From the NCBI GenBank assembly GCA_041498975.1, contig JBGQJI010000046.1, positions 1 to 16,781 of the forward strand: 16,781 bases of DNA, in the 5' to 3' direction. The notes under the pieces are model-generated. The model searched no databases and was not told the origin of the DNA. It worked only from the letters and a program-made list of their open reading frames with translations. Position 1 is the stretch's first letter. Each line of letters opens with the position of its first letter. Of this stretch, positions 1,086 to 16,781 are shown one piece after another. A program made the translations under genes and the position numbers. Source of the stretch: Candidatus Methylomirabilis sp. (GTDB lineage: Bacteria; Methylomirabilota; Methylomirabilia; Methylomirabilales; Methylomirabilaceae).

Positions 1086-2282
1086 ATGCTAAGGCCCCCT
1101 AAGCGGTCCCTTTTTTTTGCCCTCGTTGCCATCGGAAGCCTCTTTTCGTTCCCACTCGGACCAGCGATCACAGATAGCATGGTCGAGTCGGGATTTGGTG
1201 ATCCGTTGTCGGGCCTTAGCCCGGATGATCTTGAGCTGTTCGATGCTGGGAAGGAGGATTTCCTCCAAGTCGAAGAGGTGATAGACGGATTGGGCCCCGG
1301 CTTCAACGCACGCTCGTGCGGGGAGTGCCACTCGTTCCCGACCACGGGTGGAGGCAGCGCAGTAAATGAGGTTCGCTTCGGGCGAAACGTCGGGGGCATC
1401 TTCGACCCTTTGGCTTCAAAAGGCGGCTCTTTGTTGCAGCTATTTGCTATCGAGCCGAAGTGCCAAGAAGTGTTACCTCACGAGGCCAACAAAGTGGGCG
1501 GCCGGCAGACCACCGCGCTGTTTGGAGCTGGTCTGGTCGAGGCGATCCCGGACGGCCAGATCCTTAATTACGCTAACTACCAGCACGTTAAGTACCCCTT
1601 CCAGGCCGGTCGCCCCCACATGGTGACGAGCGCGTCCGATGGCCAGGACCACGTCGGCCGATTCGGGTGGAAGGCGCAGCAGGCGCTTCTGCTGGATTTC
1701 AGCGGCGACGCGTACCTCAATGAGATGGGTATCACGAACTTCCTGTTCCCGCTCGAGAATGCGCCGAACGGGGATGAAGCACTGTTGGCCGAGTGCGATA
1801 CCGTCGATGACCCCGAAGACACGGTAGATCCAAGCACCGGCCGGCGGGGGATCGATAACTTCACGAATTTCATGCGGTTCCTCGCGCCGCCGCCCCGCGG
1901 ACCCATCACGACCCGGGTCCTCCAAGGCGAGGCGCTTTTTCACCTGGCCGATTGCACGCTCTGTCATCGTCCGTCGTATACCGCCGTCAGTTCCCATTCG
2001 GTCATCAACGGCCAAATGGTGAACGCCTTTTCCGATTTCTTGCTGCATGACATCGGAACTGGCGATGGGATCGCTCTGGGCAACGCTAGACCCAACGAAT
2101 TCCGTACGGCGCCTCTCTGGGGTCTGAGAGTCGGCGCGCCCTACCTGCACGATGGGTCCGCGGCCACGCCGCTTCAGGCCATCCTTGCGCATGGCAAGCA
2201 GGCCGATTCGGCCCGCAGGCGGTTTGAGCGGCTATCGGCCGACCAACAAGGGGCGCTTCTGGCGTTCCTGAACTCATTGTAG
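1086..2282 (+). CDS. Secreted di-heme c-type oxidoreductase (DUF1111-like)
   Basis: 398 aa with an N-terminal signal-like segment. Two CxxCH motifs: CGECH (1317-1331) and CTLCH (1953-1967). Family-typical motifs GLGPxFN, GRFGWKA, AYLNEMGIT, SDFLLHD, FRTAPLWG, PYLHDG. Strong RBS AAGGAGGAGG at 1071-1080. Confidence 0.88.
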   Translation: MLRPPKRSLFFALVAIGSLFSFPLGPAITDSMVESGFGDPLSGLSPDDLELFDAGKEDFLQVEEVIDGLGPGFNARSCGECHSFPTTGGGSAVNEVRFGRNVGGIFDPLASKGGSLLQLFAIEPKCQEVLPHEANKVGGRQTTALFGAGLVEAIPDGQILNYANYQHVKYPFQAGRPHMVTSASDGQDHVGRFGWKAQQALLLDFSGDAYLNEMGITNFLFPLENAPNGDEALLAECDTVDDPEDTVDPSTGRRGIDNFTNFMRFLAPPPRGPITTRVLQGEALFHLADCTLCHRPSYTAVSSHSVINGQMVNAFSDFLLHDIGTGDGIALGNARPNEFRTAPLWGLRVGAPYLHDGSAATPLQAILAHGKQADSARRRFERLSADQQGALLAFLNSL

Positions 2283-2597
2283 GTGGTCGAACAGGGAGCC
2301 CATACTAAGAGAATCCGGTTGGAAGAGATCAGGAATGGGGTCGATCATGCCGGATGAACAGTGTGCCAAACGTGTCAAGGGAGGGTACCATCGAGGGGAG
2401 ATCGCCTGAATTAAATACATAGTGCTATGAAATTTCTGGCATCGAGACCATAAACGATCTCCTGGGCCGACTCCCCGGTCCACGTCGTGACGGGCCGTGG
2501 GCCGCATTGAGGACGAATCAGGTTGCGACTCCGCCATCCGGGTGTTAGGCTTGCAGAAGAAGCGCAGCCTCGCATTCAGCGCCACGATGGTCCCAGG

Positions 2598-3551
2598 ATG
2601 ATAGACAATCACGTCGAACGGATCGCCCGCCTGCAGGCGAACATCGAGCAGGTCCTTTTCGGCAAGCCCGAGCCGATACGCCTGTCCATCGTCGCACTGC
2701 TCGCCCGGGGCCATCTGTTGATCGAAGACATCCCGGGCGTCGGAAAGACCACCCTCGCTCAGGCGCTTGCCCGATCCCTGGGCGGCAGCTTCCAGCGGAT
2801 CCAGTTTACCAGCGACCTCCTTCCCTCCGATATCCTCGGCGTCTCCATCTACGATCCCCGGCAGGGTCAGTTCGAGTTCAAGCCGGGCCCCATCTTCGCC
2901 AACGTCGTCCTGGCCGACGAAATCAACCGGACCACCCCCAAGACCCAGTCAAGCCTCCTCGAGGCGATGAATGACTATCAGGTATCGGTCGATCACCACA
3001 CGTATCCGCTCCCGCAGCCATTCCTGGTGCTGGCCACTCAAAACCCGCTCGAGTACCACGGCACGCACCCGCTGCCCGAGTCTCAAATGGACCGGTTCCT
3101 GTTAAGGCTGAGACTTGGCTACCCAGACCGGAATGAGGAGAAACGGATCCTGCGAGCCCAGGCCGCTTCTGCCACGCTTGATCGGTTGCAGCCGGTGCTG
3201 AACCAGGACGAACTGCTCACGCTGCAGCAAATGGTGGGACAGGTCCGGATCGAGGAATCCCTCGTGGACTACCTGATGGCCATCGTCGATGCCACCCGCC
3301 GCTGCGAGGGCTTGACGCTCGGCGTGAGCCCGAGGGGGGCCCTTGCCCTTTACAGGGCAGCGCAGGCGCTTGCCTTGATCCAGGGCCGTGACTACTGCGT
3401 TCCGGATGATGTCAAGCGGCTCGCCATCCCAGTGCTCGCCCACCGACTCCTGGTCAAGGGAGGCTGGACCGGTCGTGGCGGCGGCCAGGGCTTTGATGCG
3501 GCGGCGCATCTCCTCCAGAATTTACTCGCAGAGATCCAGGTGCCTGACTGA
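2598..3551 (+). CDS. MoxR-family AAA+ ATPase
   Basis: Walker [21 protein letters not shown], Walker [24 protein letters not shown]. Start moved to ATG 2598 (MIDNHV) on family length; the track's start at 2523 adds a non-conserved-looking extension. Confidence 0.93.
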
Positions 3552-3565
3552 CCGATAGGTGACCG

Positions 3566-4696
3566 ATGCGCGCTTCCACCTCCGTCCAAGCGCGGCTAAG
3601 GGCTTGGTTCCGCCTGCCTCGGGTGATCCGTCCCGCCCGCGAAGGATGGTGGTACCTGTCTGTGACGATGGCCGTCGGGGTAGCTGCGACTAACACCGGC
3701 AACAACCTGCTCTACCTGATTCTCAGCATGCTGCTGGCGGGAATCATCGTGTCCGGCCTCCTGTCGGAGCAAACGTTGCGCGGGGTCGCCGTTCGGCGTG
3801 AGCTGGCCCGCCCACTTTTTGCGGGCCAACCGGCATTCGGCCGAGTGCTGGTCGCGAACCGCAAGCGCCGCCTTCGCTCCTTCTCACTTCGGATCCGCCA
3901 GATAGATCCCAACGGGACTCCCAGTCTCCTCGCGTATCTGCCGCACCTGGCCCCCGCGAGTGAGGCCCAAACGGCGTACAAGACCCGTTTCGAGCGCCGA
4001 GGCCTCGTGCGACTGCCGGCGATCCAGACTACCACGGGCTTCCCTTTCGGCCTGTTTGTCAAGGCGACCCAGCCCCAGGCCGGGGAGGAGGTGCTCGTTC
4101 TGCCGAGAATCGTCCCTCTTCCGGCCGATCTGGTGCAGGCGCTGGACGAGGCGGGGGTCTCGGCACGGCCGGTACGTGGGCCAGGCGCGGACCTTCACGA
4201 CCTGCGCCCCTTCCGGGTCGGGGACGATCCTCGCCTGATCCACTGGAAGCAATCGGCCAAGCTGGATCGGCCGATGGTGAAGGAGTTGGAGTCGGAAGAG
4301 GGCGGACGGATCACGCTGATTCTCGTGGACCCGACGCCTTCGCCGCAAAAACCCGATGAGCTCGAACGACTGGAACAGGACATCACGTTTGTCGCCTCGC
4401 TCGCCGCTCACCTGCTGCAGAGGGGGGGCGAGATCGAGGTTCGCGATCGTGGCGGCCGGCAGGGAGCCCTTCGGGGCGAGGCAGGATTGTTTCACCTGCT
4501 CGAGCATCTCGCCCGCTACGAGCCGCCTGACTCAGTCGAGGCGCCCGGACCGGTGGGCGCGGGTGATGGTGCACCGCATGAGGCAACAACCGTCACGGTG
4601 TGGCTCGGGCGGGGACTTGTCGCAATCCCCGGATCAGCCGGCGAGGGAGGCCGCCTCGTGAGGGTCGCGCTGCCGCCACAGGAGATGACTCGGTGA
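3566..4696 (+). CDS. DUF58 domain membrane-anchored protein (MoxR partner)
   Basis: N-terminal hydrophobic hairpin with AATNTGNNLLYL, FPFGLF, and the DUF58 core LRPFRVGDDPRLIHWKQSAK. Lies directly downstream of the MoxR gene. Confidence 0.9.
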   Translation: MRASTSVQARLRAWFRLPRVIRPAREGWWYLSVTMAVGVAATNTGNNLLYLILSMLLAGIIVSGLLSEQTLRGVAVRRELARPLFAGQPAFGRVLVANRKRRLRSFSLRIRQIDPNGTPSLLAYLPHLAPASEAQTAYKTRFERRGLVRLPAIQTTTGFPFGLFVKATQPQAGEEVLVLPRIVPLPADLVQALDEAGVSARPVRGPGADLHDLRPFRVGDDPRLIHWKQSAKLDRPMVKELESEEGGRITLILVDPTPSPQKPDELERLEQDITFVASLAAHLLQRGGEIEVRDRGGRQGALRGEAGLFHLLEHLARYEPPDSVEAPGPVGAGDGAPHEATTVTVWLGRGLVAIPGSAGEGGRLVRVALPPQEMTR

Positions 4697-6843
4697 CCTT
4701 CGACCAGTGGTTCCGGCTCTCCTCCCTCCTCCTCCTCGGCGACGGTCTGCTGGCCCTCTGGATGGCCGGCTTACTCGGCTCGGCCGAGGCCCTTCTCGTC
4801 GGGCTTGGTCTGATCCTCGGTCTCAGAAGCGAGGCCCAAAGTCTCTCGCCTCGGTCCAGACGGATCGCGCAGCGGATCGCCATGGGCCTCTTGCCCCTCC
4901 TCCTCGCTGCCGATGTCCTGTACCTCGCCGATTCTCTCCTGCACGGCCTGATCCACCTGCTCACTCTTCTGGGGCTCCTCAAGCTCTTTCTCCGCACAAA
5001 CGACCGGGATTTTCGCGACCTCTTCATCATCAGCTTCTTTCAACTGGTGGCGGCGTCGGCCACCACGACCAGCGTGGGCTTTCTGGTGGTCTTCCTCCTC
5101 TACCTGTTCCTCGGGATCTGGGCCTTCCTCCTGCTTCACCTGAAGCAGGAAGGGGTGGATAGGAGCCCTGAATGGAGCGCGCTGCCCGCCAAGCTCCTTC
5201 CCACCAGCCTGGCCGTCTCCTGCACGGTCCTCCTGCTCAGTGTCGTGCTCTTCATCGCCATCCCCCGGGCGGGGCGGGCCTTTCTCCCCCGGAAGGCGAT
5301 GGCAGGTGCGATGGTGGCCGGCTTCTCGGAGAAGGTCGAGCTGGGTAGCTTGGGCAAGATCCAGACTGAGACGAGCATCGTCATGCGGATCAGGCTGCCG
5401 AACGTGCGGCCCGAAGATCTCCATCGGCTCCCCCTCCGCTGGCGGGGGGTGGCGTTCGATCGGTTCGACGGCACCACCTGGACGATGACGGGACCGGAGC
5501 GAGAGCCCCCCGAGCGAAGCCGCGGGGGGCTTGCGACCTTCGGGGCGCCATCCGGAGCGGGGCGGCTAGTCCGCCAGGAGATCCAGCTCGAACCGATCGG
5601 CACAGACGTCCTGTTTGCCGCGCCCCGGCTGATCCAGATGCTTGGCGATTTCCCGCGCCTTTTCACCGACGCGAGAGACACCGTCAGTCTCCCGAGCCCA
5701 CCTTCCAACCGGATGACGTACCTGGCCCTCTCCGAGCTGGAGACCGCCGATTCCAGCGCCCTATCGGGTGCGGAGGGGACGTATCCCGACGCGATCCGGG
5801 AAACGTATCTTCAGCTCCCGCCGCTGGTCCCGAGGGTCAGGGCCCTGGCAGAGGAGCTGGCCAGGGGCGCGCGTACTCCCCTCGAGGTCGCCCGCCGGGT
5901 TGAGGCTCATCTCCGCGAGAGATATCGCTACACCCTCGATCTGCAAAGGGACAGCCGGTTCGATCCGCTCGATGATTTCCTGTTCGTCCAGCGCGAAGGC
6001 AATTGCGAGTATTTCGCCGCCAGCATGGCGGTGCTGCTCAGGGCTGCGGGGATTCCGGCCAGGGTGGTGAATGGGTTTCAACGTGGGGAATGGAACGAAT
6101 ACGGCGGCTACCTCGCGGTGAAGCAGCGGGATGCCCATTCCTGGGTCGAGGTCTATTTCCCTCGGGGCCGCTGGCTTACGTTCGATCCATCGCCGAGAGC
6201 GAGCAGCGAGGCGTCCAGGAACGCCCTCCTCGCCCGCGTCTCCAGATACCTGGATGCGCTCGGCATGCGATGGGACCGCTACGTCGTCTCGTACAATCTC
6301 TCCGATCAGCTTCGCATCGTGTCGGTCACGAGGCGGCGAGCCGATCTGCTTCGATGGCAGGCGCTCGGACTCTTCCGGGGATTCGAGCGGGCGGCGAAGG
6401 CCGCAGCGCACGCCCTCGCGGCTAGACTCCATGCAGGCGGGCTGCTCCTGCTGGCGATCACCATCGCGTGCGCGGGTCTGGTGGTGGCGGTGCGCAAAGG
6501 GGCATTCGGCTGGGGCCGCTTCGGGAAGCGGGGCGGCCAGGGTACCGTGCAATTCTACCGAGAGCTGCTCGGCCTGCTGGCCCGCAAAGGCTTTGTCAAG
6601 GGAAGGGACATCACACCCCGTGAGTTCGCGGCATCCGTGGAGGCAGATGGCCGGTCCGAATTTGCAGGGGTCTCGCAGGTCGTCGAAAGCTACTACCGGG
6701 TCCGTTACGGCGCCCGACAGATCTCCGCATCGGAGCACGCGCGCATCGCACAGATCCTCCACCGTCTTGCCACTGGGCAAGTCCAGCGGCCAGCCGCTGT
6801 CGGACGCGACCGGATTCCATCCTCAGACGTTTCCGACGCCTAA
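4693..6843 (+). CDS. Membrane transglutaminase-like protein (TgpA type: DUF3488 TM region, transglutaminase core, DUF4129-like C-terminus)
   Basis: GTG 4693 overlaps the DUF58 stop (GTGA) with a CAGGAG RBS. Multiple N-terminal TM helices. Catalytic motifs GNCEYFAASM, DAHSWVEVY and WLTFDPS supply the Cys-His-Asp triad. C-terminal TPREF and YYRVRYG. Confidence 0.92.
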   Translation: MTFDQWFRLSSLLLLGDGLLALWMAGLLGSAEALLVGLGLILGLRSEAQSLSPRSRRIAQRIAMGLLPLLLAADVLYLADSLLHGLIHLLTLLGLLKLFLRTNDRDFRDLFIISFFQLVAASATTTSVGFLVVFLLYLFLGIWAFLLLHLKQEGVDRSPEWSALPAKLLPTSLAVSCTVLLLSVVLFIAIPRAGRAFLPRKAMAGAMVAGFSEKVELGSLGKIQTETSIVMRIRLPNVRPEDLHRLPLRWRGVAFDRFDGTTWTMTGPEREPPERSRGGLATFGAPSGAGRLVRQEIQLEPIGTDVLFAAPRLIQMLGDFPRLFTDARDTVSLPSPPSNRMTYLALSELETADSSALSGAEGTYPDAIRETYLQLPPLVPRVRALAEELARGARTPLEVARRVEAHLRERYRYTLDLQRDSRFDPLDDFLFVQREGNCEYFAASMAVLLRAAGIPARVVNGFQRGEWNEYGGYLAVKQRDAHSWVEVYFPRGRWLTFDPSPRASSEASRNALLARVSRYLDALGMRWDRYVVSYNLSDQLRIVSVTRRRADLLRWQALGLFRGFERAAKAAAHALAARLHAGGLLLLAITIACAGLVVAVRKGAFGWGRFGKRGGQGTVQFYRELLGLLARKGFVKGRDITPREFAASVEADGRSEFAGVSQVVESYYRVRYGARQISASEHARIAQILHRLATGQVQRPAAVGRDRIPSSDVSDA

Positions 6844-6938: not shown

Positions 6939-7460
6939 TTACTTGGAAGAGATCACGCCGCAAGCGATCCTGGCCCCGGCGTTTCCGGCGGGGTCCGTCA
7001 TGTCGTCATCTGCAACCGCATGGATGACAAGGGCAGAGCCTTCGCGACCGAAGAGAGAATTCTCGGCCTGCTCCAGAGTGACCTGCGAGGCAACGACCTC
7101 GGCGGTAGCGGTGCCATCAGGCCCTACGACTAGGTTGGGTAGATCCCCCGCATGCGCGCCTGCTGGATTCTTCACCCCATGCTTCTTTCCGTCCGGGTTA
7201 AAGTGGCCGCCGGCCGACATAAAGGTGGGCGGATCGCACCTGCCGACGGCGTGGATATGGAACCCATGTGGGCCAGGGGTGAGCTTCCAGGCCTCCAATG
7301 ATATTCTGACGCCCCCCTGCTGCTGGGTAAGAGTCGCGCGACCCACCGTCTTTCCCTTTGAGCTGAGCAGCTCTACCTCAGCCGTCTGGGCGCTCGCCTG
7401 ACTGTAGGCGATAGCGCTAAAGAGAAGAAATGCCCCTGCAACGAACGCTGTGCGCTCCAT
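6939..7460 (-). CDS. sodC: Periplasmic Cu/Zn superoxide dismutase
   Basis: Signal peptide, then HGFHIH, SAGGHFNP, KKHG, HAGDLPNL, LVIHA and GNAGARIACGVI. All canonical Cu/Zn ligands and both disulfide Cys appear present. GGAGGAG RBS. Confidence 0.97.
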   Translation of the reverse strand: MERTAFVAGAFLLFSAIAYSQASAQTAEVELLSSKGKTVGRATLTQQQGGVRISLEAWKLTPGPHGFHIHAVGRCDPPTFMSAGGHFNPDGKKHGVKNPAGAHAGDLPNLVVGPDGTATAEVVASQVTLEQAENSLFGREGSALVIHAVADDDMTDPAGNAGARIACGVISSK

Positions 7461-7705: not shown

Positions 7706-8191
7706 CTACCAGAGCGGCGAGTTCGGATACCGTCGGGCCAACCATCGATCGAGTCCGAACGAACGCCCGGAACGGGCGAGAAACACCACCACCAGACCGG
7801 CCATGAACCCCTGATCCGAGGTAGTGCCCGGCGACCCACCCCCTTTCGCCAAGAAGAAGTTGAGCGTCAGCAAGATTCCCCCCAAGGCTGCCAGCCTCGT
7901 GAAGAGGCCGAACAGAAGCGCCAGGCCGGCCAGTATCATCCCCCAGGTAACGAGCTGGGCAAAGAGTTGATGATGGGGGATGGCCACGCTCTTCAGGAAT
8001 GGCTTGTACCACTGAAACGCCCTATCGTTGGCCCACGGGAGGAGTAGCTTCTCCAAGGCGCCGGGGCGAGTGAAGCCGCTGGTCAACTTCCCGAGCCCAT
8101 CAAACAGGAAGTAATAGCCGAAAAAGATGCGCAAGAGCGCCACCTGCCAAAGCTTTGTCTCCTCCTCCCAATTGCCCCTGAGCACGGTCAC
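7706..8191 (-). CDS. DoxX/DoxD-family membrane protein
   Basis: About 4 TM helices. LLRIFFGxxFxxxGLGK, WYKPFL, GLALLFGLFTRLAA and GRSFGLD are DoxX-like patterns. GTG start with AAAGGAG RBS. Confidence 0.85.
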   Translation of the reverse strand: MTVLRGNWEEETKLWQVALLRIFFGYYFLFDGLGKLTSGFTRPGALEKLLLPWANDRAFQWYKPFLKSVAIPHHQLFAQLVTWGMILAGLALLFGLFTRLAALGGILLTLNFFLAKGGGSPGTTSDQGFMAGLVVVFLARSGRSFGLDRWLARRYPNSPLW

Positions 8192-8993: not shown

Positions 8994-9602
8994 CTAGATA
9001 TGCTTCCGCATCATGTACCAGCGGTCGGCGCCCGCCTTGGCTCGCTTGTCGGCCTCCTCGAGGGTCTGTGGCGGGGGAATGATGACATCCTGGCCGGGCT
9101 GCCAATTCACCGGGCAGGCCACCCCGTATTTGTCCACTGTCTGCAGCGCCTTCAGGCTCCGGAGGATCTCATCGATGTTCCGGCCGAACGGGATCGGGTA
9201 GTACATCGCAAATCGGACCACCCCTTCCGGATCGATGAAGAAGACGCCGCGGACGGTGAGCCCGACCTCGGGGTTGATCAGGTCGTAGAGGTTGGCCACG
9301 ACCTTCTCCGGATCGGCGACCACCGGGAACTCGATCTTGACCTTCGCCATCTCCTCCATGTGGCGGAGCCATTCGATGTGCGAGTAGATGCTGTCCACGC
9401 TCAGGCCGATGACCTCGCATCCGAGGTCCTTGAACTCCTTGTGGCGCCTGGCGAACTCGATGAACTCCGTCGTGCAAACCGGGGTGAAGTCGGCCGGATG
9501 AGCAAACAGCAGCACCCACTTGCCGCGGAACTGCGACAGGGTTATAGGGCCCTTCGTCGTGTTGGCAGTGAAATCCGGGGCCTTGGATCCGATCTTGACC
9601 AT
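8994..9602 (-). CDS. Peroxiredoxin, Prx6 subfamily
   Basis: HPADFTPVCTTE peroxidatic motif, GLSVDS, TVRGVFFIDP, GRNIDEILR, PVNWQPG. Start reassigned to ATG 9602 (MVKIGSKAPDF) with an AAAGGAGG RBS, giving 202 aa. Confidence 0.95.
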   Translation of the reverse strand: MVKIGSKAPDFTANTTKGPITLSQFRGKWVLLFAHPADFTPVCTTEFIEFARRHKEFKDLGCEVIGLSVDSIYSHIEWLRHMEEMAKVKIEFPVVADPEKVVANLYDLINPEVGLTVRGVFFIDPEGVVRFAMYYPIPFGRNIDEILRSLKALQTVDKYGVACPVNWQPGQDVIIPPPQTLEEADKRAKAGADRWYMMRKHI

Positions 9603-9780
9603 TCTTGCCTCCTTTACGGTACAGTTCGCAGAGTCTTCGGGGTTTGGCCATTCGACCCTCTTCAGATCAGTCGATCGGTTGCGAAGCCAGGATGCCGCCG
9701 ATTCATCCGGCGTTCCGACGTTCTTGAACATCCTTCTCCCAAAAAAGGAGTGTAGCTTCTTGATCCCTGGCGATGCAACG

Positions 9781-9808
9781 GTTTTTTCCTGCTGGTTTTT
9801 TCCTGCTG
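9781..9808. repeat. Tandem repeat GTTTTTTCCTGCTG x2
   Basis: Perfect adjacent 14-mers at 9781-9794 and 9795-9808 in the intergenic region upstream of prx. Confidence 0.7.
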
Positions 9809-9911
9809 ATTCGGTGAACAACAAGGTGCAGTTCCCTCTGGCCGTCGAGAAGGTCGCAAGGAAGGAGATTGTTTCGCACCCCGGAGGACCTCGAACTGTC
9901 CGATAGGATCA

Positions 9912-10778
9912 TCACATCATGCCATCTCCATGGCGCATCCTGCGGGAAAGCCAGGCCACCGTCACCAGGAGGCTGAGGAGAGCGACTGTCATCTGAGCGG
10001 GGGGATAATCGTAGTGGTTGGCAAGCACAAACCCGACCGTGCCCATCCCCACTGCGACAACAGGCGCCACAAAGAACATGGGGCGAATCTCCCGGCACAC
10101 GTGCTTCGCGACAAGGGCGGGAAGCACCAGGCATCCAAACGTGTAGAGCATCCCGGAGGACCTGATGGAGAGTCCCACAGCAAGGCCGAGGCAAGTAGAC
10201 GTGAACGCTCCCCAGCGAGCGATCTTCATGCCCACTGCCGCAGCCATCAGTGGGTCCATGGCGAAGAGAAGGACGCGCCGATGCGTGACCCAGAGGGAAA
10301 GCACGGCGAGTCCGGCGAGCATGCCGAAGGTCCAGACGTCGGCTTTCGTGGCTCCGATGATGCTTGATGAGAGCAGCCGGTGGATCTCCTCCAGCCCGTG
10401 TGGGCTCTTGGAGACAACCAAGATGGAGAGGCTCGCCGACAGCAGGAAGACCCAGCCCGTGAGCGCCTCGTGGCTCTCTTTCGTCGTTTCTCCTCCAGGG
10501 CCAGTGATCAGAGCGGCGATCACGGAGAACACCACGGCCATGGTGGACAGGAATCCATCCGAGCGAAGCCAGGAGAGGGGGCTCGTGGCCGCTAAACCAC
10601 CGATCCACATCGCCAACGCGATTCCGAGGGTGGATGCCTGCGACACGGCCGCGCCGATGAAGATCTGGTCGCGGGCCACCACGAGCACGCCGACGAGTGA
10701 GAGGAGAAGGCCGATCAGCCAACCGGCGAGATAGGTGTTGTGAAACAGCGTCCAGGAAGAGAGGAAGCTCTCGATCAT
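9912..10778 (-). CDS. Zn/Mn-type ABC transporter permease (ZnuB-like)
   Basis: Highly hydrophobic. GVLVVARDQIFIGAAVSQAS, MDPLMAAAVG, GMLYTFGCLVLPA and DYPPAQ fit the ABC-3 permease pattern. ATG 10778 overlaps the ATPase stop (ATGA) with a GGAGG RBS. Confidence 0.9.
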   Translation of the reverse strand: MIESFLSSWTLFHNTYLAGWLIGLLLSLVGVLVVARDQIFIGAAVSQASTLGIALAMWIGGLAATSPLSWLRSDGFLSTMAVVFSVIAALITGPGGETTKESHEALTGWVFLLSASLSILVVSKSPHGLEEIHRLLSSSIIGATKADVWTFGMLAGLAVLSLWVTHRRVLLFAMDPLMAAAVGMKIARWGAFTSTCLGLAVGLSIRSSGMLYTFGCLVLPALVAKHVCREIRPMFFVAPVVAVGMGTVGFVLANHYDYPPAQMTVALLSLLVTVAWLSRRMRHGDGMM

Positions 10779-11545
10779 CGGTTTCCTCCCGGCGGACAGA
10801 CCCGAACCGCGACCGAGCCCGACGGGTCGCAAGACACCTCCACCCCGACTCCGTAGACCCGTTCGAGCGAGTCCACGTTCAGCATCTCATCGCGCGGACC
10901 GAACTCGACGCCCTTTGAATGAAAGAGAGCGACATGCGTGGCGTAGCGCGCTGCGATCGCGATATCGTGCGTCACAAAAAGCAGGGTCAGATGCTCCGCC
11001 AGGTTCAGGTTGGCGAGAAACCGCAGGAACAAGTCCTCCGTGGAGAGGTCGAGGCCGTTCGTGGGCTCGTCCAGGATCAAGAGCTTGGGCCGTCGCACGA
11101 GGGCCCGGGCCACCAGCGCGCGTTGCCGTTGGCCGCCGGAGAGGGACCAGTAATCCCGTCCCGCCATCCCTTCCAGGCCGACCCTGGCAAGCGCCCACTC
11201 CAGACGTTCCGACTCTTCCTTCCTGGTTGCCCGAATGCCGACGAGCCCCAACACGACGAACTCCCGGACCGTGGTAGGAAGCGACGGATTCATGTCGCAA
11301 CGCTGGGGAACAAAACCGATCTGCTCAAGGCGCGCAAGGTCCGGGTGGAGCGACAAGCGGCCAGCCTGGGGTCGAAGCATCCCCAGGATGGCCCGGATCA
11401 GGGTGGTCTTTCCCGAGCCGTTCGGCCCGAGAAAGAAACAGAACTCTCCCTGTCGCAGCTCATAGTTGATGTTCTCAAGGACGATCCTTCGATCATAGGA
11501 CAGAGACAGTTGGGTCGTCTTTATGACAACATCGGTGTTCTCCAT
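10775..11545 (-). CDS. Zn/Mn-type ABC transporter ATPase (ZnuC-like)
   Basis: Walker A GPNGSGKT, IGFVPQ, signature LSGGQRQR, Walker B LLILDEP, and VTHD. Start at ATG 11545 with a GAGGAG RBS. Confidence 0.93.
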   Translation of the reverse strand: MENTDVVIKTTQLSLSYDRRIVLENINYELRQGEFCFFLGPNGSGKTTLIRAILGMLRPQAGRLSLHPDLARLEQIGFVPQRCDMNPSLPTTVREFVVLGLVGIRATRKEESERLEWALARVGLEGMAGRDYWSLSGGQRQRALVARALVRRPKLLILDEPTNGLDLSTEDLFLRFLANLNLAEHLTLLFVTHDIAIAARYATHVALFHSKGVEFGPRDEMLNVDSLERVYGVGVEVSCDPSGSVAVRVCPPGGNR

Positions 11546-11650
11546 ACTCCTCTCAGTCCTGGCAGTGCGCTCAGGTGAAGGACGCGGCCGGGCCGTCGTG
11601 AACTGCAACCGCGCAATGGAAAGAATCGGTGACGGGGTGTGGCCTCTGCC

Positions 11651-12709
11651 TCACCGCCTCAACGCAGTCGCAACCTGCCGGATATCGTAATCAATCATGG
11701 ACAGGTAGTCATCGCTGCCTTCCCGTGCGCCTACCTGATGGGCCAGGTTGACAACTCTTGCGCTTGTATTCTCCGAGATGAATCGCGCATGCCGAGGGTC
11801 ATAGTAGGGAGCCGCGAGGACAACCATGACCCCTTCGGCCCTTATCCTCTCCACCAGCGCGCGAAGGTGACTGGTTGTCGGAGGGATCCCCGGCTTCGGC
11901 TCCATGTGACCGATCACCTCGATCCCGAAACGGCGAGCGTAATAGGGCCACATATTATGGTCATCCACCACCTTGGCTCCACGATAGGGTAACATCGAAC
12001 CCAGCCATCCGCCAAGAAGCGACTCCTCCCTCTGTTCCTTTAAGAAGGGGCCGAGCCTGCCGCGCTCAAAGAGGATGGCCAGCTTCTCGATATCGTACTT
12101 CTTGGCGAGCCTCTCGCCGACTAGTGCCGTGCCCAGTCGCTGGCTGAAGGAGGCGTAGCGATCCTCGAAGTATGCCTTCCTCTCCGGCCGGAGTTCGATC
12201 AGTTTGTCACGGATCAACCGGGCCACCTTGAGCCCATTCAGAGGGTCTAACAGGTAGTGTGGATTCCCCAAGGGGTGGACATCCCCCATAGAACGATCCA
12301 CCGGCCCGGTGGGAACCTCGAGGGGGGAGATCACCCTGGAAGCGTCAAGGTAACCGGGAGCGCCGGGTAAGATCGTGCCGTTCCTGGCATTCTGCAGGAG
12401 GACCGGCGCCCAGCCGATTTCCAAATCCATTCCCACCTGGACGTAGAGATTACACTGGCTCAACACCTTGATAAAGCTGGGCTTGGCCTCGACGAAGTGT
12501 GCATCTTCCGGCCCCTTGGCGAAGATTATGATCGTGACCTGGTCACCACCCACCTCGCGAGTGAGACTCCCCAAGTCGGGAACCGTCGCGCAGACCTGAA
12601 TCGGCTTGGTACCCCCCTGAGCAGAGACGGTGGGGGTGACGAGCCCCATGGGTGCCAGCAAGAACGCGAACGCCGCCATCCTGCAACTTCGGCCCATTAT
12701 GTGCAACAT
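11651..12709 (-). CDS. Metal ABC transporter substrate-binding protein (ZnuA/TroA, cluster A-I)
   Basis: Signal peptide, EDAHFVEAKPS, GMDLEIGW, GDVHPLGNPHYLLDP, DHNMWPY, EPKPGIPPT. Start at ATG 12709 with an AAAGGAG RBS. Confidence 0.92.
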   Translation of the reverse strand: MLHIMGRSCRMAAFAFLLAPMGLVTPTVSAQGGTKPIQVCATVPDLGSLTREVGGDQVTIIIFAKGPEDAHFVEAKPSFIKVLSQCNLYVQVGMDLEIGWAPVLLQNARNGTILPGAPGYLDASRVISPLEVPTGPVDRSMGDVHPLGNPHYLLDPLNGLKVARLIRDKLIELRPERKAYFEDRYASFSQRLGTALVGERLAKKYDIEKLAILFERGRLGPFLKEQREESLLGGWLGSMLPYRGAKVVDDHNMWPYYARRFGIEVIGHMEPKPGIPPTTSHLRALVERIRAEGVMVVLAAPYYDPRHARFISENTSARVVNLAHQVGAREGSDDYLSMIDYDIRQVATALRR

Positions 12710-12725: not shown

Positions 12726-14225
12726 TTAGTACTTGTGAGCAGGATGAGCGCCGTAGAGGAATTCGACTCCCAGCCAGACGGAATGGGCGTCCTTGTGTTC
12801 GAGGTGCTCCGCCCGATCGTAGTTGTATTGCAGGCGGATCCGGGAGAACTCGGACGGATGCCAGACAAGGAGCGGCGAGATGCGATGACGGTCGTCTCGG
12901 AATGGGTCCGCGTCCCTCCCATTAAAGGTCAGCACGCTCGCCCCACTCCCGCTGGCATACTCGTACCGCAGCCCGCCGGCCCAGCCATAGGTGAACCCGT
13001 ACAATGCCTGGGTGTAGAACCCCCAATCCCGTAGGGTGGTACGCGGCAGGTCGATGACGTTGGCCGGATCGCTCTCGCTGAGGAAGCGATCCGCCGTATA
13101 GTCCCGCCGCATGATCTCCGACTCCCAGAGGAAGAAAGGCCACCCCCGGAAGTTGTTCGCTGGACGCCACCTCACCTTGAGGTCCGCGCCGTAGATGCGG
13201 GTGTCACCGTCCGGTCCCGTGGCATTCGGGCCGAAGAGCCCCGAGAAGCCAAGTTTGGCGCCCAGCTCATCGCTCAGATTCCAGAAGTTCTCCCAGCGGA
13301 CGGAGTAAAGGAGATCCTTCAGGCTGCTGACGTCGCGCTTGACGAACGGTCGCCCACCGATCGGTCGCTCCCCAAAGAACTCCTCGTTTGCAAGAAAACT
13401 CGACGCGGTCTCGCCATTCGCGTTCTGCACGCCGACGTAAAGTTCAGAGAACCAGGGCAGGGGCGTGAGCCAACCCAATCGAACGCCGGCCTGTCGCAGG
13501 CCGTCCGGACCGAAGAGCCGCGTGTTGATGACCGGCTGATCCAACCAGTGCCATGCATGCGGGTGGACTGGATTGATCAGCCCGAACTCGGTGAAATAGA
13601 ACCCACCCTTCAACTGGACTCCGTAGGGAAGTGACTGGGTGGTCAGGAATGCCTCCTCCATTTCGACTCTCGTGTCACCGACAGCAGGGTCGATGAGGTA
13701 AATGATATGGGCCTCGCCCGTGAAGTAGGGGTCCACAGCGCCCGAGAACGACAGCTCGACCTGTTGGACGGTAAAGCCACGCTTACGCGGATCGTGGTCG
13801 GCTCCTTCAAGGTTCTGGAGTGACGAGTCGCGTTCAGTGGAGGTGCCAGCGGCGAACAGGGCATCCAGGGAGATGTCGATGAGCCGGAATGTGGTCCCCC
13901 CGATCTGACGGGAAAAGAGCTCGGTTGCCACAGGCTGCGGCCCAGGCGGCCCTGTCTCCTTTAATGCTTTGTCGAGGGCGGATTCCGGCGCCGTGGGCTT
14001 TTCCGCGGCAACGGGTTGAGATCCGATGGCCTGAATTCGCCGCTGCAGTTCGTCGAGCTTCCTCTGTTTTTCGGCGTCGCTCCGCCGAAGCTCTTCGATC
14101 TCCTTCTTCAGGGCCTCGAGTTCGGAGTTTTTGGCCTGGGCCAGCGCGCTGTCCACGTGAATGGTCATTGTGGCGAGAACGGTGAACACGATCAGGCCCC
14201 ACTGTCTAGCGTAGGGGAATGGCAT
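12726..14225 (-). CDS. His-rich putative outer-membrane beta-barrel metal uptake protein
   Basis: Signal peptide, coiled coil, Pro-rich linker, then amphipathic beta-strands. Motifs ELSFSGAVDPYF, EEAFL, FGLINPVHPHAW, PSEFSRIRLQY and C-terminal GAHPAHKY resemble proteins annotated as zinc-regulated outer-membrane receptors next to znuABC (recalled, not searched). GGGAGG RBS. Confidence 0.8.
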   Translation of the reverse strand: MPFPYARQWGLIVFTVLATMTIHVDSALAQAKNSELEALKKEIEELRRSDAEKQRKLDELQRRIQAIGSQPVAAEKPTAPESALDKALKETGPPGPQPVATELFSRQIGGTTFRLIDISLDALFAAGTSTERDSSLQNLEGADHDPRKRGFTVQQVELSFSGAVDPYFTGEAHIIYLIDPAVGDTRVEMEEAFLTTQSLPYGVQLKGGFYFTEFGLINPVHPHAWHWLDQPVINTRLFGPDGLRQAGVRLGWLTPLPWFSELYVGVQNANGETASSFLANEEFFGERPIGGRPFVKRDVSSLKDLLYSVRWENFWNLSDELGAKLGFSGLFGPNATGPDGDTRIYGADLKVRWRPANNFRGWPFFLWESEIMRRDYTADRFLSESDPANVIDLPRTTLRDWGFYTQALYGFTYGWAGGLRYEYASGSGASVLTFNGRDADPFRDDRHRISPLLVWHPSEFSRIRLQYNYDRAEHLEHKDAHSVWLGVEFLYGAHPAHKY

Positions 14226-14368
14226 TGATTGTCCCTCCCTGTGTGCGAAGATACTTGTCGCGCTACGAGAGAACTGCGCGGCTAGGAGAAGGAGAAGTGA
14301 GTCGGTCTCCGGCCTTCGAAGACGAATACGAGACCGGTTACCGACCGGCGGCTAGCTTGACGCGGATG

Positions 14369-14755
14369 CTAGAGGAGAATCGGTGGGGCGCGGCTGTGGA
14401 ACGATCCGAGCTCTGTGACGCTGGCGAGTGCAACGAACGAGAGAACTCGGAACTCATAGTCGAAGAAGAAACCGAGCAGAAGAGCGAGGAGGAGGCCGGT
14501 GGAGGCGACCTGCTGCCAGAAATGGATCGGGCAGAACCCTTGGGGTTCCGGCCGAGGCTTGGCGCCGGTGCCCTGAGCATCAGTGATCGGGGTCGAACTG
14601 GGAAGCAGGGGTCGAAAGAGGCCACCGAGAGAACCGGCATCACCATGATCATGCGGGTCGGGGACCAGGAGCAAGAATGCGATCGCGAAGAGCACGAGGA
14701 CCGCTGCCCCATGCTTTGTCTCGATGCCTGTCTTTCTACGCTCGCGCAAATCCAC
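14369..14755 (-). CDS. DUF2946/CruR/CutF-like leader ORF with C-terminal RAPP motif
   Basis: 128 aa, GTG start. N-terminal hydrophobic segment, HDH (14645-14653), CPIH (14522-14533), a second hydrophobic stretch, and terminal HSRAPPILL (RAPP at 14381-14392). Directly upstream of the outer-membrane metal uptake gene. Confidence 0.75.
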   Translation of the reverse strand: MDLRERRKTGIETKHGAAVLVLFAIAFLLLVPDPHDHGDAGSLGGLFRPLLPSSTPITDAQGTGAKPRPEPQGFCPIHFWQQVASTGLLLALLLGFFFDYEFRVLSFVALASVTELGSFHSRAPPILL

Positions 14756-14831
14756 CTGCTTTCACCATAAGAGTGGATCGAATTGCAGAAACTGCCATCA
14801 TCGTTGCACCCTCACCACCGTGAATGAGATC

Positions 14832-15977
14832 CTACCAAGGCCGTCCCACCCTGTCCAGGGGAAACTTCCCACCTTGCTGTTTTCCAGCCAGCGACCAGCG
14901 AGGCGTGGTCATCCCCTGCACGGGCTGGTGGGTCGCATGCTGTTCAAGGTGTTGGTGGGAGCGGATATGGCGGGCCGGCGGGAGCTGGGTGAGCAGCGCC
15001 GTGCAGGCCAGCGCCCCGACGGCCACAAGCCACTCCAACCGCACAGACCTGAAGAACTGCTGTTGAATCTTCTCCTCGTCTTTGCTCCCCTTGTCCGTCG
15101 GCAGGGTGCCGGCGAGCCGGCCGATCGTCCTGACGATCAGCCGGTCACGGGCGAACGAGCTGCCTCCCAACCGGGAGAGGAAATAGTAGCGGTTGAGCGC
15201 CGCGATCATCAACACCAGCAGCACAAGCGAGAGTTTGACGAGGAGCGTCCACCCGTACGAGGTGGTGAAGAGGGGCCAGATGGACGTCACCTGTATCCAG
15301 GCATTGTAGCACCCCGCCGCAAGAAAGCCTGCCGCGCAGCAGGCCGCCATCCTGGAGAACCGCAGCGCGATCGAAGCCAAGCCCTGCACTTTCTCCCCGC
15401 TGCCAGGGGGCCCCAGCGAGCCGCGAAGCACGAACCCAAGCGTGAAAAGGCCGCCGGTCCAGGCGGAGACCGCCAGCAGATGGAACCAGTCTACCAGGAC
15501 CGGCACTGTCAGATCTCCCCAGTCTGCTGCATGGCCTGTGAGACTTGTCGTCAGGGCGACAAGGGTGGCCCCAACGAGGGATGCCCCAGCGGACCAGTGG
15601 AGGCGTGGCGTTCCTCCCCGCCTGAGCAGCCACGACCCGCCGAGCAACCCGATCAGGCTGATCCGAACGATCCACACGGTCCCAAAGTGGGTCTGGCTGA
15701 GCACCGCCGGGAGGGCAGTGCCCAGATCGGCCAGGGTCCCTTCGCTCATCATCAATGTCCTCAGGAGCAGGTCCCCGAGGCTCGCCAGGGCCACGAGCAC
15801 GATCGAGCCGGCCTCTGCGCGTCGAAGGCGTCCTTCAAAGCTCTCGATCTCCTGGCGCGAGAGAAGGGCTGGCCGGACGACCAGGCAACGAAATGCCAGT
15901 CCGCCGACCAGCGTCGTGAGGCCGACGAAGTCCAGCCATCGTAGAAAGGTCTGAAGAAGCATCTCGGAAACGCTCAT
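14832..15977 (-). CDS. copD: CopD-family inner-membrane copper protein with a His-rich tail
   Basis: About 8 TM helices. THFGTVW, SLTGHAA, DWFHLLAVSAWTGGL, RFSRMA, TSYGWTLLVKL, AALNR. ATGA overlap with copC. Confidence 0.92.
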   Translation of the reverse strand: MSVSEMLLQTFLRWLDFVGLTTLVGGLAFRCLVVRPALLSRQEIESFEGRLRRAEAGSIVLVALASLGDLLLRTLMMSEGTLADLGTALPAVLSQTHFGTVWIVRISLIGLLGGSWLLRRGGTPRLHWSAGASLVGATLVALTTSLTGHAADWGDLTVPVLVDWFHLLAVSAWTGGLFTLGFVLRGSLGPPGSGEKVQGLASIALRFSRMAACCAAGFLAAGCYNAWIQVTSIWPLFTTSYGWTLLVKLSLVLLVLMIAALNRYYFLSRLGGSSFARDRLIVRTIGRLAGTLPTDKGSKDEEKIQQQFFRSVRLEWLVAVGALACTALLTQLPPARHIRSHQHLEQHATHQPVQGMTTPRWSLAGKQQGGKFPLDRVGRPW

Positions 15978-16360
15978 GGACGCAGCTCAATGGTGAACGG
16001 AAAATCGCCCTCCGTGCGGTGGCCGTCTCGGGCGATGACACTCCAGAAGACTCGATATTTTCCAGGTGGAAGCGCTGGCACGCTGACCTCGAGGATGGTG
16101 TTGTCCGACGGGTTGACCCGCCCGTCTTGCTTATCCACCCGTTGCTTGTCGGCGTTCACCACCTTGATCGTGCTGAAGACGGGCTCCAGCGCTCCATCAA
16201 ACCAGATCCTCACCTGGGCGGGGGCCGTGGGCAAGGTCCACCCCACCCGAGGCTCCGAATGGTCGGGGAATGCATGGCCCCAGGCGGACGCGGCCACAAG
16301 GAGCAGTGCGAGCCCCAGTGCGGCCGGTCCGCGCAAGGACCGCTCCTGCAAATCGTTCAT
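15974..16360 (-). CDS. copC: CopC-family periplasmic copper-binding protein
   Basis: Signal peptide ending AWG, mature N-terminal HAFPDHSEP, C-terminal WSVIARDGH. Translationally coupled to copD. Confidence 0.93.
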   Translation of the reverse strand: MNDLQERSLRGPAALGLALLLVAASAWGHAFPDHSEPRVGWTLPTAPAQVRIWFDGALEPVFSTIKVVNADKQRVDKQDGRVNPSDNTILEVSVPALPPGKYRVFWSVIARDGHRTEGDFPFTIELRP

Positions 16361-16781
16361 TTCGGCATCGACTGTGGCCCCAGCACCCCGTGGAAGGGAG
16401 TCCAGGTGAAGATATTGGGCGCGATGTCGTCGAGAAAGACATGAATCATCCCCAGGACCCCTACATGGTGGCCGGAAACCTCGTTTAGGGGGATCTGGGC
16501 CTCGATCGCCAGTTCAAAATACTTTCCGGCCCAGATCAGGCCGGGATTGGCAAAGGCGGTGGTCTGGCCGCTCTCATGCCCGGTGAGCAGCGTCTCCCCG
16601 TTGAACTCCACGATGGGGATCAGGCGGCTGAAGGGCCATGGGATTCCCACATCCTTCACGAACGATTGCAGATAGGGAATGCTGTACATCAGGGTGACAC
16701 CCCATTCAAGGCTGTTGTCGAGTTCTTCGGTGTGGCTGTGGCCGGTGAACAGGTTGAAACCGAGCGAACCTGTGACCGCAA
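16357..16781 (-). CDS. 3' part of a putative outer-membrane protein upstream of copCD (5' end outside the window)
   Basis: The frame stays open from the track's ATG 16689 to the window edge (AVTGSLGFNLFTGHSHTEELDNSLEWGVTLMYSIPYLQSFVKDVG...). It has alternating beta-strand patterns, and its stop overlaps the copC ATG (ATGA). Confidence 0.7.
   Translation of the reverse strand, partial: AVTGSLGFNLFTGHSHTEELDNSLEWGVTLMYSIPYLQSFVKDVGIPWPFSRLIPIVEFNGETLLTGHESGQTTAFANPGLIWAGKYFELAIEAQIPLNEVSGHHVGVLGMIHVFLDDIAPNIFTWTPFHGVLGPQSMPK

Follow-up and report, generated by a model that had tools for sequence, protein, structure and literature searches.

A conserved RAPP-ending leader ORF with His and Cys motifs, a candidate metal-sensing arrest peptide, precedes a porin-like gene in Methylomirabilota

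The DNA considered here (hereafter, the window) is a stretch of 16,781 nucleotides (nt) from contig JBGQJI010000046.1 of the Candidatus Methylomirabilis assembly GCA_041498975.1, and its element of interest is a short open reading frame (ORF) of 128 amino acids (aa), the leader ORF, that lies in front of a gene for a porin-like outer-membrane protein and of the genes for an ATP-binding cassette (ABC) importer of the ZnuABC type. Read along the same strand, the order is an unnamed conserved ORF, CopC, CopD, a promoter-like site, the leader ORF, a spacer and the outer-membrane gene, followed by a ZnuA-family protein, an ABC ATPase, an ABC-3 permease, a 1-Cys peroxiredoxin, DoxX and a Cu/Zn superoxide dismutase (Table 1). 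A first-pass annotation, made from the letters of the sequence, had described the leader ORF as carrying a signal or transmembrane segment, the motifs HDH and CPIH and a RAPP three residues from the stop codon, with 143 nt to the ATG (14225) of the next gene, and had proposed that it might be a nascent-chain metal sensor in front of an outer-membrane protein and an ABC importer; all of these elements are seen in the sequence, including both kinds of downstream gene. The leader ORF is a real gene under purifying selection, and its alignments indicate that HDH, CxxH and RAPP are its best-conserved parts. What it would do is argued below by comparison with known arrest peptides.

Table 1. Features of the leader ORF, its RNA and the neighbouring genes in the window
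Feature	Position	Strand	Remarks
Leader ORF	14369..14755	-	128 aa, GTG start; purine-rich stretch resembling a Shine-Dalgarno (SD) sequence before the start
Hydrophobic segment 1, aa 17-31	14663..14707	-	Kyte-Doolittle hydropathy up to 3.26; AlphaFold2 (AF2) helix 12-30
PDPHDHGD, aa 32-39	14639..14662	-	Candidate metal ligands His35/His37 and Asp
C75-P-I-H78-F-W, CxxH motif	14516..14533	-	At the position of CxxC in DUF2946
Hydrophobic segment 2, aa 83-98	14462..14509	-	Kyte-Doolittle hydropathy up to 2.26; within AF2 helix 76-117
RAPP codons R122-P125, predicted arrest point	14392->14381	-	CGC GCC CCA CCG
Tail codons ILL and stop	14369..14380	-	Pyrimidine-rich; complementary to the downstream SD
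Promoter-like site	14829..14857	-	TGGACA, 17 nt, TAGGAT and TG extension
C>G transcript region	14200..14700	-	Composition resembling a rut site; C/G 1.3-1.8
Spacer/leader, 143 nt	14226..14368	-	Hairpin region about 14301-14346; second hairpin upstream of the SD
CU-rich anti-SD-like element	14285-14297	-	Within the spacer
Porin SD, GGGAGGG	14233..14239	-	Predicted to be sequestered
Porin-like outer-membrane protein	12726..14225	-	499 aa, first downstream gene; signal peptide, coiled coil aa 35-67, beta-barrel
ZnuA-family substrate-binding protein	11651..12709	-	PF01297, E 1.3e-39; open frame back to 12922
ABC ATPase	10775-11608	-	By Pfam; best NCBIfam matches of the ABC pair AztA/AztB, below cut-offs
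ABC-3 permease	9912-10832	-	By Pfam; best NCBIfam matches of the ABC pair AztA/AztB, below cut-offs
1-Cys peroxiredoxin (AhpC/TSA family)	8994-9824	-	
DoxX	7706-8191	-	
Cu/Zn superoxide dismutase	6939-7460	-	

The leader ORF and its family

That the leader ORF is a real gene rests on its homologues, its substitution pattern, its codon composition and its conserved start. A word-indexed protein search recovered 105 homologues at E<=0.01 among 320 candidates, and the median ratio of nonsynonymous to synonymous substitution rates (dN/dS) was 0.277 over 21 pairs drawn from seven DNA sequences, with the sequence from locus L007 omitted because of N. The G+C content at the three codon positions (0.68/0.46/0.70) is similar to that of the neighbouring genes, and the GTG start, together with the purine-rich stretch that precedes it, is kept in all six upstream regions long enough for alignment. 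The homologues that bear a name are called "hypothetical protein" and come mostly from NC10/Methylomirabilis records, with three from metagenome-assembled genomes (MAGs) filed under other phyla. The family is narrow, since an exhaustive profile hidden Markov model (HMM) search of 1.84 billion representatives gave only four clusters, one of them (P0113) spurious; P0113 is a repeat protein that matches the CPIH region only, and it was dropped from the family.

Motifs were counted over 108 sequences, namely the window ORF, the 105 homologues and two representatives. PDPHDHGD occurs in 106 of them (one of the two exceptions being the N-terminal fragment P0112) and CxxH in 107, whereas CxxC occurs in none. 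The conservation of the ORF and of its three motifs, which the first-pass annotation had named as a check, is supported by this comparison, as is the replacement of CxxC by CxxH that it had proposed. The arrest motif reads RAPP in 99 sequences, RSPP in three and RGPP in two, and it is missing from four, of which P0050 and P0105 end early, P0108 diverges before CxxH and P0028 has PAPP. Three residues follow the motif in 89 of the 104 sequences that bear it, four in 14 and two in one, the window ORF itself ending in S-F-H-S-R-A-P-P-I-L-L-stop. In every sequence that has both motifs (104/104), exactly 43 residues separate the His of CxxH from the Arg that opens RAPP, whereas the loop between HDH and CxxH carries indels of up to 16 residues in an alignment of 37 sequences. 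In that same alignment F27, L30, PDPHDHGD, S42 and G44-G45 are invariant, C75, P76, H78, F79, W80, Q82 and R122-A-P-P125 are conserved in at least 90%, and position 94, within the second hydrophobic segment, is Arg in most homologues.

The codons of RAPP vary synonymously (GCC/GCT, CCA/CCG, CCG/CCC), which shows that the peptide rather than the RNA is kept at this place. The nucleotide pattern that encodes R-A-P-P is not enriched in the window (three matches vs 2.77 expected), and the RAPP of the leader is the only in-frame R[AGS]PP among 16 likely window genes (4992 residues). The weight given to the motif comes from its conservation, 99 of 108 sequences and always two to four residues from the end, and not from rarity at the DNA level.

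As for topology, the first hydrophobic segment is probably an anchor or signal with its N-terminus inside and its C-terminus outside, because a basic N-terminus precedes it and an acidic loop follows it (an application of the positive-inside rule based on charge distribution only). In the AF2 prediction most of the loop is disordered, while the helix spanning residues 76-117 has a predicted local distance difference test score (pLDDT) of about 80.

Neighbouring genes, porin and importer

A genome profile scan with the 37-sequence alignment gave eight loci (L001-L008), whose partner genes were located by tblastn. L008 (Streptacidiphilus) was set aside as spurious, its pattern match being antisense to a long kinase-like ORF, and the seven accepted loci come from MAGs of the Methylomirabilota type, of which one is filed under a different name; counts out of eight loci therefore refer to the window plus L001-L007, and counts out of seven to L001-L007. 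The same outer-membrane gene comes next after the leader ORF in 7/7 loci, at a distance of 115-146 nt in 8/8, although in L005 only its first 44 codons are left before an unrelated gene on the opposite strand. This interval (L005 7518-10127), in which the porin gene breaks off at about codon 44 and the opposite-strand gene is of the alpha-amylase family, reflects either a rearrangement or a misassembly; upstream in L005 there are also a Porin_O_P paralogue and a FitA/PemK-like pair. The first-pass proposal that the target is a ZnuABC-like system stands in part: ABC genes follow the porin in the window, L001, L002, L003 and L007 (L004 ends before that region), but the constant partner of the leader is the porin-like gene and not ZnuABC, since the former is found at all seven loci and the latter is absent from L006.

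The 499-aa outer-membrane protein is matched by no Pfam family, Pfam scans of 37 relatives returned coiled-coil noise and a few weak porin families only, and a sequence search of the PDB gave nothing relevant. Its AF2 model, built from a 37-sequence alignment (pLDDT 70.7, predicted template modelling score 0.65), comprises a signal helix, a coiled coil and a beta-barrel, and the top PDB matches found by Foldseek are the trimeric porins chitoporin (5mdq), DcaP (6eus) and OprP (2o4v), with E values of 1e-10 to 1e-8. The predicted fold and the size are those of a porin, and the N-terminal coiled coil is shared with DcaP. The family is large, with at least 2377 matches among the 8000 candidates scored, it spans several phyla, and its invariant His/Asp clusters include H144/D145, H221/H223 and H494/H497.

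The binding protein of the importer probably starts at M72 (12709), before a signal peptide, because 197 nt of the longer frame overlap the porin gene at its 3' end. Its closest solved structure is Synechocystis ZnuA (2ov1), and its His residues in DAH, NPH and DDH align with three positions of 2ov1 (in DPH, DPH and H-x-x-W) that we take to be the metal ligands of Synechocystis ZnuA. The protein has no His-rich loop; there is a 45-residue insert (aa 263-308) without a His run. In agreement with the first-pass annotation, which had seen no Zur or Fur gene in the window, a Pfam scan of 25 window ORFs, out of 102 listed, gave no match to the Fur/Zur family.

Upstream of the leader, copD is the directly adjacent gene in the window, L001 and L004, lies 5 kb off in L006, and copCD was not found in the 7 kb upstream of the leader in L005. 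The promoter-like site lies about 75 nt ahead of the leader start and overlaps the end of the copD frame, namely its last codons and stop; it was the only site returned by the promoter scan, against 0.1 expected in shuffles, and inspection by eye shows similar -35/-10-like hexamers at the corresponding position of L001, L004, L005/L006 and L007. No inverted repeat or operator-like palindrome was found in 14740-14920. Judged from these sequence features, the leader ORF heads its own transcription unit.

Some further observations concern the surroundings. The conserved ORF upstream of copC (16357-16779, minus strand, 5' open) is 89% identical in L004 and 75% in L006 and has no Pfam or NCBIfam match. 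In L006 a gene for a small metal-binding protein (SMBP, PF16785; 1879-2373) follows copCD, and a B12-dependent methionine synthase gene (3060-6758) lies between copCD and the leader ORF. The plus strand of the window carries, at 1086-6843, a di-haem oxidoreductase (DHOR) and then a MoxR ATPase/DUF58/TgpA-like transglutaminase cluster, which are unrelated to the leader.

The leader RNA and its possible coupling to the porin gene

How could the translation of the leader be coupled to the expression of the porin gene? Two modes come into consideration, termination by Rho and masking of the porin SD. With regard to Rho, the C/G ratio of the last 300 nt of the leader ORF is 1.57-1.95 in 8/8 loci. 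It is 0.84-1.07 for the gene that follows and 0.88-1.24 for the DNA upstream of the leader in the five loci with at least 190 nt of it, and no intrinsic terminator was found at the leader; this composition, together with the missing intrinsic terminator, is consistent with Rho coupling.

With regard to the SD, the ribosome-binding site (RBS) of the porin has a predicted opening cost of 10.0 kcal/mol, the highest of 14 starts in the window (2.1-7.5 for the others), and of 6.4-9.2 kcal/mol in the comparison across the eight loci. RNAalifold pairs the tail codons of the leader with the porin SD, both when all sequences are folded together and within each of the two subgroups, while the CU-rich element of the spacer is the best partner of the SD in 4/8 loci (the window, L002, L003 and L005) and a close second in L006. 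One pair of a spacer hairpin shows four double (compensatory) changes, in 4/8 sequences, and nothing in Rfam matched at E<=1 over 14000-15100. Masking of the SD is possible in these models, the costly RBS and the pairing with the tail codons speaking for it, and the lack of covariation in that pairing, the CU-rich element as the better partner at those loci and the inconsistent relief by a modelled stalled ribosome speaking against it.

A candidate metal-sensing arrest leader

Small proteins that end in an arrest motif and precede metal genes have been described in other bacteria, and the following comparisons draw on parts of the respective articles. CruR (Bp2923) of Bordetella pertussis, a DUF2946 protein, keeps its operon on by arrest at RAPP, which copper relieves (Roy et al. 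2022, PMC9426467). According to the same source, leaders of this type come first in metal operons with genes for TonB transporters, CopC and AhpC_TSA, the rut site of cruR was mapped to a C>G bubble, CruR was judged to be short-lived, and no riboswitch is known for Cu or Zn. Like CruR, the leader ORF encodes a small protein with an N-terminal export signal and little predicted structure, and it opens an operon for metal uptake through the outer membrane. In both, RAPP comes three residues ahead of the stop and a constant number of residues separates it from a Cys-containing motif (45 in CruR vs 43 here), the spacer is long (162 nt vs 143 nt) and the ORF has a C>G bubble. It differs from CruR in having CxxH instead of CxxC, the additional invariant PDPHDHGD and, after the metal motif and ahead of RAPP, a second segment that is hydrophobic, and in its downstream genes, which are a TonB-dependent transporter and PepSY_TM in CruR and a porin-like barrel with a cluster A-I ABC importer here; besides, the window ORF lies below the Pfam threshold and belongs to the phylum Methylomirabilota.

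In CutF of Rhodobacter capsulatus, as portrayed in the part of Ozturk et al. (10.1101/2025.02.05.636593) used here, copper has the opposite effect, inducing a stalling that turns on a detoxifying oxidase. Both leaders combine an export signal with a metal motif that contains Cys and with a proline-based stall site, putative here, at the C-terminus, and an mRNA structure covers the next SD in CutF and is predicted to do so here. The leader ORF differs in that CutF has CxxxC and an EF-P (elongation factor P)-dependent PPP, whereas the leader has CxxH and RAPP, and no PPP. The RAPP core is shared as well with the arrest peptides ApdA, ApdP and SecM (in the part of Morici et al. 2024, PMC10951233, from which the P- and A-site assignment at RAPP is also taken), but these are monitors of Sec/YidC capacity without metal motifs, whereas a porin and a metal importer lie downstream in the window.

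A catalogue of such leaders exists already. According to Fujiwara et al. (2025, PMC12992588), the arrest at RAPP is robust and EF-P-resistant, and the motif is under-represented in proteomes, with an enrichment close to the C-terminal end of small exported proteins and an over-representation upstream of metal genes. File 8 of that article contains, among the rows listed, at least nine upstream ORFs (uORFs) of 95-132 aa with RAPP, each followed after about 50-260 nt by an outer-membrane gene of 400-500 aa. Nearly all of them open, by eye, with a hydrophobic segment and then a His-rich stretch, as the leader ORF does, and each has a C-terminal RAPP as well as a Cys motif; the annotation of one is DUF2946, one carries FHSRAPP as here, and in three of them the spacing from the Cys motif to the Arg, counted by hand, is 43-44. 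They come from other lineages than the window and are not treated singly in the main text considered, eight of the nine listed having CxxC and one C-x3-H, and PDPHDHG was not found among those rows. In the same file "Carbohydrate porin" ranks among the product names with the strongest enrichment downstream of RAPP uORFs, with 54 cases for RAPP vs 5 for AAPP, a 42-fold enrichment, which suggests that leader-controlled porins are common. Thus, going by the rows listed in that catalogue, the pairing of a leader with a porin is already on record in other lineages, while its CxxH/HDH form in NC10 is not described in the literature searched, where neither this leader family nor a zinc-responsive arrest peptide was found.

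Is the leader family then a branch of DUF2946 (PF11162)? The HMM comparison with DUF2946 that the first-pass annotation had proposed as a check did not bear out membership for the window ORF, while 10 of its 37 relatives gave weak matches at E<=10, the best at E 0.051. Nine of these matches, looked at in detail, score 10.8-14.8 bits, and eight of the nine are colinear with the profile, from position 1-4 to 117 of 117; the weak matches stop at RAPP. Furthermore, 7 of the 30 nearest clusters of the ESM-Atlas sit in a set that carries DUF2946, with a score of 0.95. What formally defines DUF2946, the gathering score and the invariant CXXC, is lacking here, whereas the marks of CruR-type leaders are present: the C-terminal RAPP, the spacing from the metal motif to it, the N-terminal anchor or signal, and the first place in the operon with a long spacer. 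From the sequence comparisons, we take this as a family that is either a distant relative of DUF2946 or a convergent analogue. A link between DUF2946 and zinc is already in print, in that, in the part of PMC4176598 drawn on, a Caulobacter DUF2946-domain protein with a listed Zur box adjoins the czrCBA genes for Zn/Cd efflux.

On balance we lean, with some reserve, towards the leader being an NC10-specific and strongly diverged relative or analogue of the metal-sensing arrest leaders CruR and CutF. Arrest, the binding of a metal, the identity of that metal, the direction of the response and the mode of coupling are what we infer from the features above, and the mechanism could be as follows. 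A ribosome arrested at RAPP would keep the porin gene expressed, and the ZnuABC-type importer with it where present, either by shielding the C-rich and G-poor 3' part of the ORF from Rho, as in CruR, or by holding the otherwise sequestered SD clear of the tail codons and the leader, as in CutF and SecM. At the moment of arrest C75-x-x-H78 would lie 46-49 residues from the peptidyl-transferase centre, just outside the exit tunnel, with the second hydrophobic segment inside the tunnel and H35-D-H37 further out, beside the membrane anchor. A metal bound by CxxH and HDH might then fold or compact the nascent chain, alter the pulling force on it and release the arrest, so that the ribosome would terminate and downstream expression would fall, a feedback repression of uptake. 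Since the target is an uptake system, the metal is expected to relieve the arrest and to lower expression, as in CruR, and the sign is expected to be opposite to that of CutF.

The first-pass annotation had suggested a sensor retuned to Zn, Ni or Co. The metal sensed is most likely Zn(II): the three-His binding protein, the His/Asp-rich ligands and an annotation lead for the porin family favour zinc. Copper is possible, because of the copCD neighbour, the AhpC/TSA gene typical of copper DUF2946 operons and the locus without ABC genes. In its most specific form, the proposal is that the HDH and CxxH peptide with its RAPP is a nascent-chain Zn(II) sensor that sets the expression of a zinc porin and of the ZnuABC-type importer after transcription initiation, without Zur or alongside it, which would be the first such sensor for a metal other than copper, the change from Cys to His at a 43-residue ruler acting as the specificity switch. 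This is a tentative proposal, which we consider less likely than not to be right.

Several results weigh against these readings. The window ORF matches no Pfam family at E<=10 and no NCBIfam at E<=1, no sequence of the leader family reaches the DUF2946 gathering score of 23.7 bits, and, as the exhaustive search gave only four clusters, no chain of intermediates joins the family to DUF2946. The AF2 model of the leader ORF is poor (pLDDT 61, too low for a metal site to be read from it) and has no formed metal site. A stable hairpin protein of the membrane would be compatible as well with the second hydrophobic segment and with the invariance of the anchor and loop. On the RNA side, the helix between the tail codons and the SD is without compensatory change and has a G-G mismatch in 2/8 sequences, a modelled stalled ribosome changes the opening cost of the SD by -0.5 to +3.0 kcal/mol, inconsistently over the eight loci, the leader of the window folds no more stably than its shuffles (z-score -0.30, single-sequence), and the C>G skew may come in part from the content of Pro, Leu, His and Ala codons. 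As for the genes, L006 has the leader ORF and the porin with no ABC genes, the peroxiredoxin and DoxX following the porin directly, and the nearby copCD and AhpC/TSA gene fit copper equally well.

This last point leads to the most serious competing explanation, in which the mechanism of the leader is the same but the metal is copper, the porin serving copper acquisition in a copper-hungry methanotroph beside the CopCD importer. The immediate upstream neighbours in the window, L001 and L004 are CopC and CopD, Cys and His ligands are able to bind Cu, L006 dispenses with a Zn-type ABC system, and DUF2946 operons include CopC and AhpC_TSA genes (in the part of PMC9426467 used), a peroxiredoxin of the latter family also following here. 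On the other hand, 107/108 sequences have His in place of the second Cys that a Cu(I)-type CxxC would have, the co-transcribed binding protein is a three-His one that is closest, among solved structures, to a Zn ZnuA, copCD and the leader have a promoter-like site between them, and copCD is 5 kb away in L006 and not within the 7 kb of L005, all of which make copper a rather doubtful choice, if still a sensible one. It is unlikely, furthermore, that the product is a stable inner-membrane metalloprotein of two helices with a periplasmic His/Cys site, a chaperone or accessory for the porin or the importer in which RAPP has another role or causes a mild pause. The two hydrophobic segments and the confident long helix 76-117 would fit it, as would the anchor residues and loop motif, invariant beyond what a leader might need, and the topology, by which both metal motifs would flank the loop at the membrane face. 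However, RAPP is avoided in proteomes and arrests robustly in spite of EF-P (going by the part of PMC12992588 cited), it is kept two to four residues from the end in 99/108 sequences, the invariant 43 residues suit a ruler in the exit tunnel and answer no obvious need of a mature protein, the loop is mostly predicted to be disordered, and CruR, similarly laid out, was judged to be short-lived (PMC9426467).

A force-sensing monitor of the SecM/MifM/ApdA type, whose arrest would end once the hydrophobic segments insert into the membrane and would thereby report on Sec/YidC capacity rather than on metal, is very improbable: ApdA and ApdP are typified by an export signal at the N-terminus and a RAPP close to the C-terminus (PMC7897499, PMC10987492 and PMC10951233), but the downstream genes encode a porin and a metal importer and not Sec/YidC components, and the most conserved parts of the leader are His, Cys and Asp motifs. 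Finally, the leader could be a chance ORF in a GC-rich spacer, to which the missing Pfam and NCBIfam matches and the long alternative frames that overlap it might point; the 105 homologues with conserved motifs, the dN/dS of 0.28, the gene-like codon composition and the conserved start leave this explanation practically no room, and we regard it as refuted.

With CruR and CutF it has been established that copper can be sensed by a nascent peptide, which controls the genes downstream of it via ribosome arrest. A His/Cys variant in front of a Zn-type uptake system offers a way to test the extension of this class to other metals and, at the same time, whether the ligand chemistry at a fixed distance from the arrest point sets the specificity. 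The value of the finding is limited by the fact that RAPP leaders before metal genes, including those before this porin family, are already catalogued (in the portion cited of PMC12992588). If true, the proposal would give a function to an orphan family of Methylomirabilota and would link a large and misnamed porin family to metal uptake.

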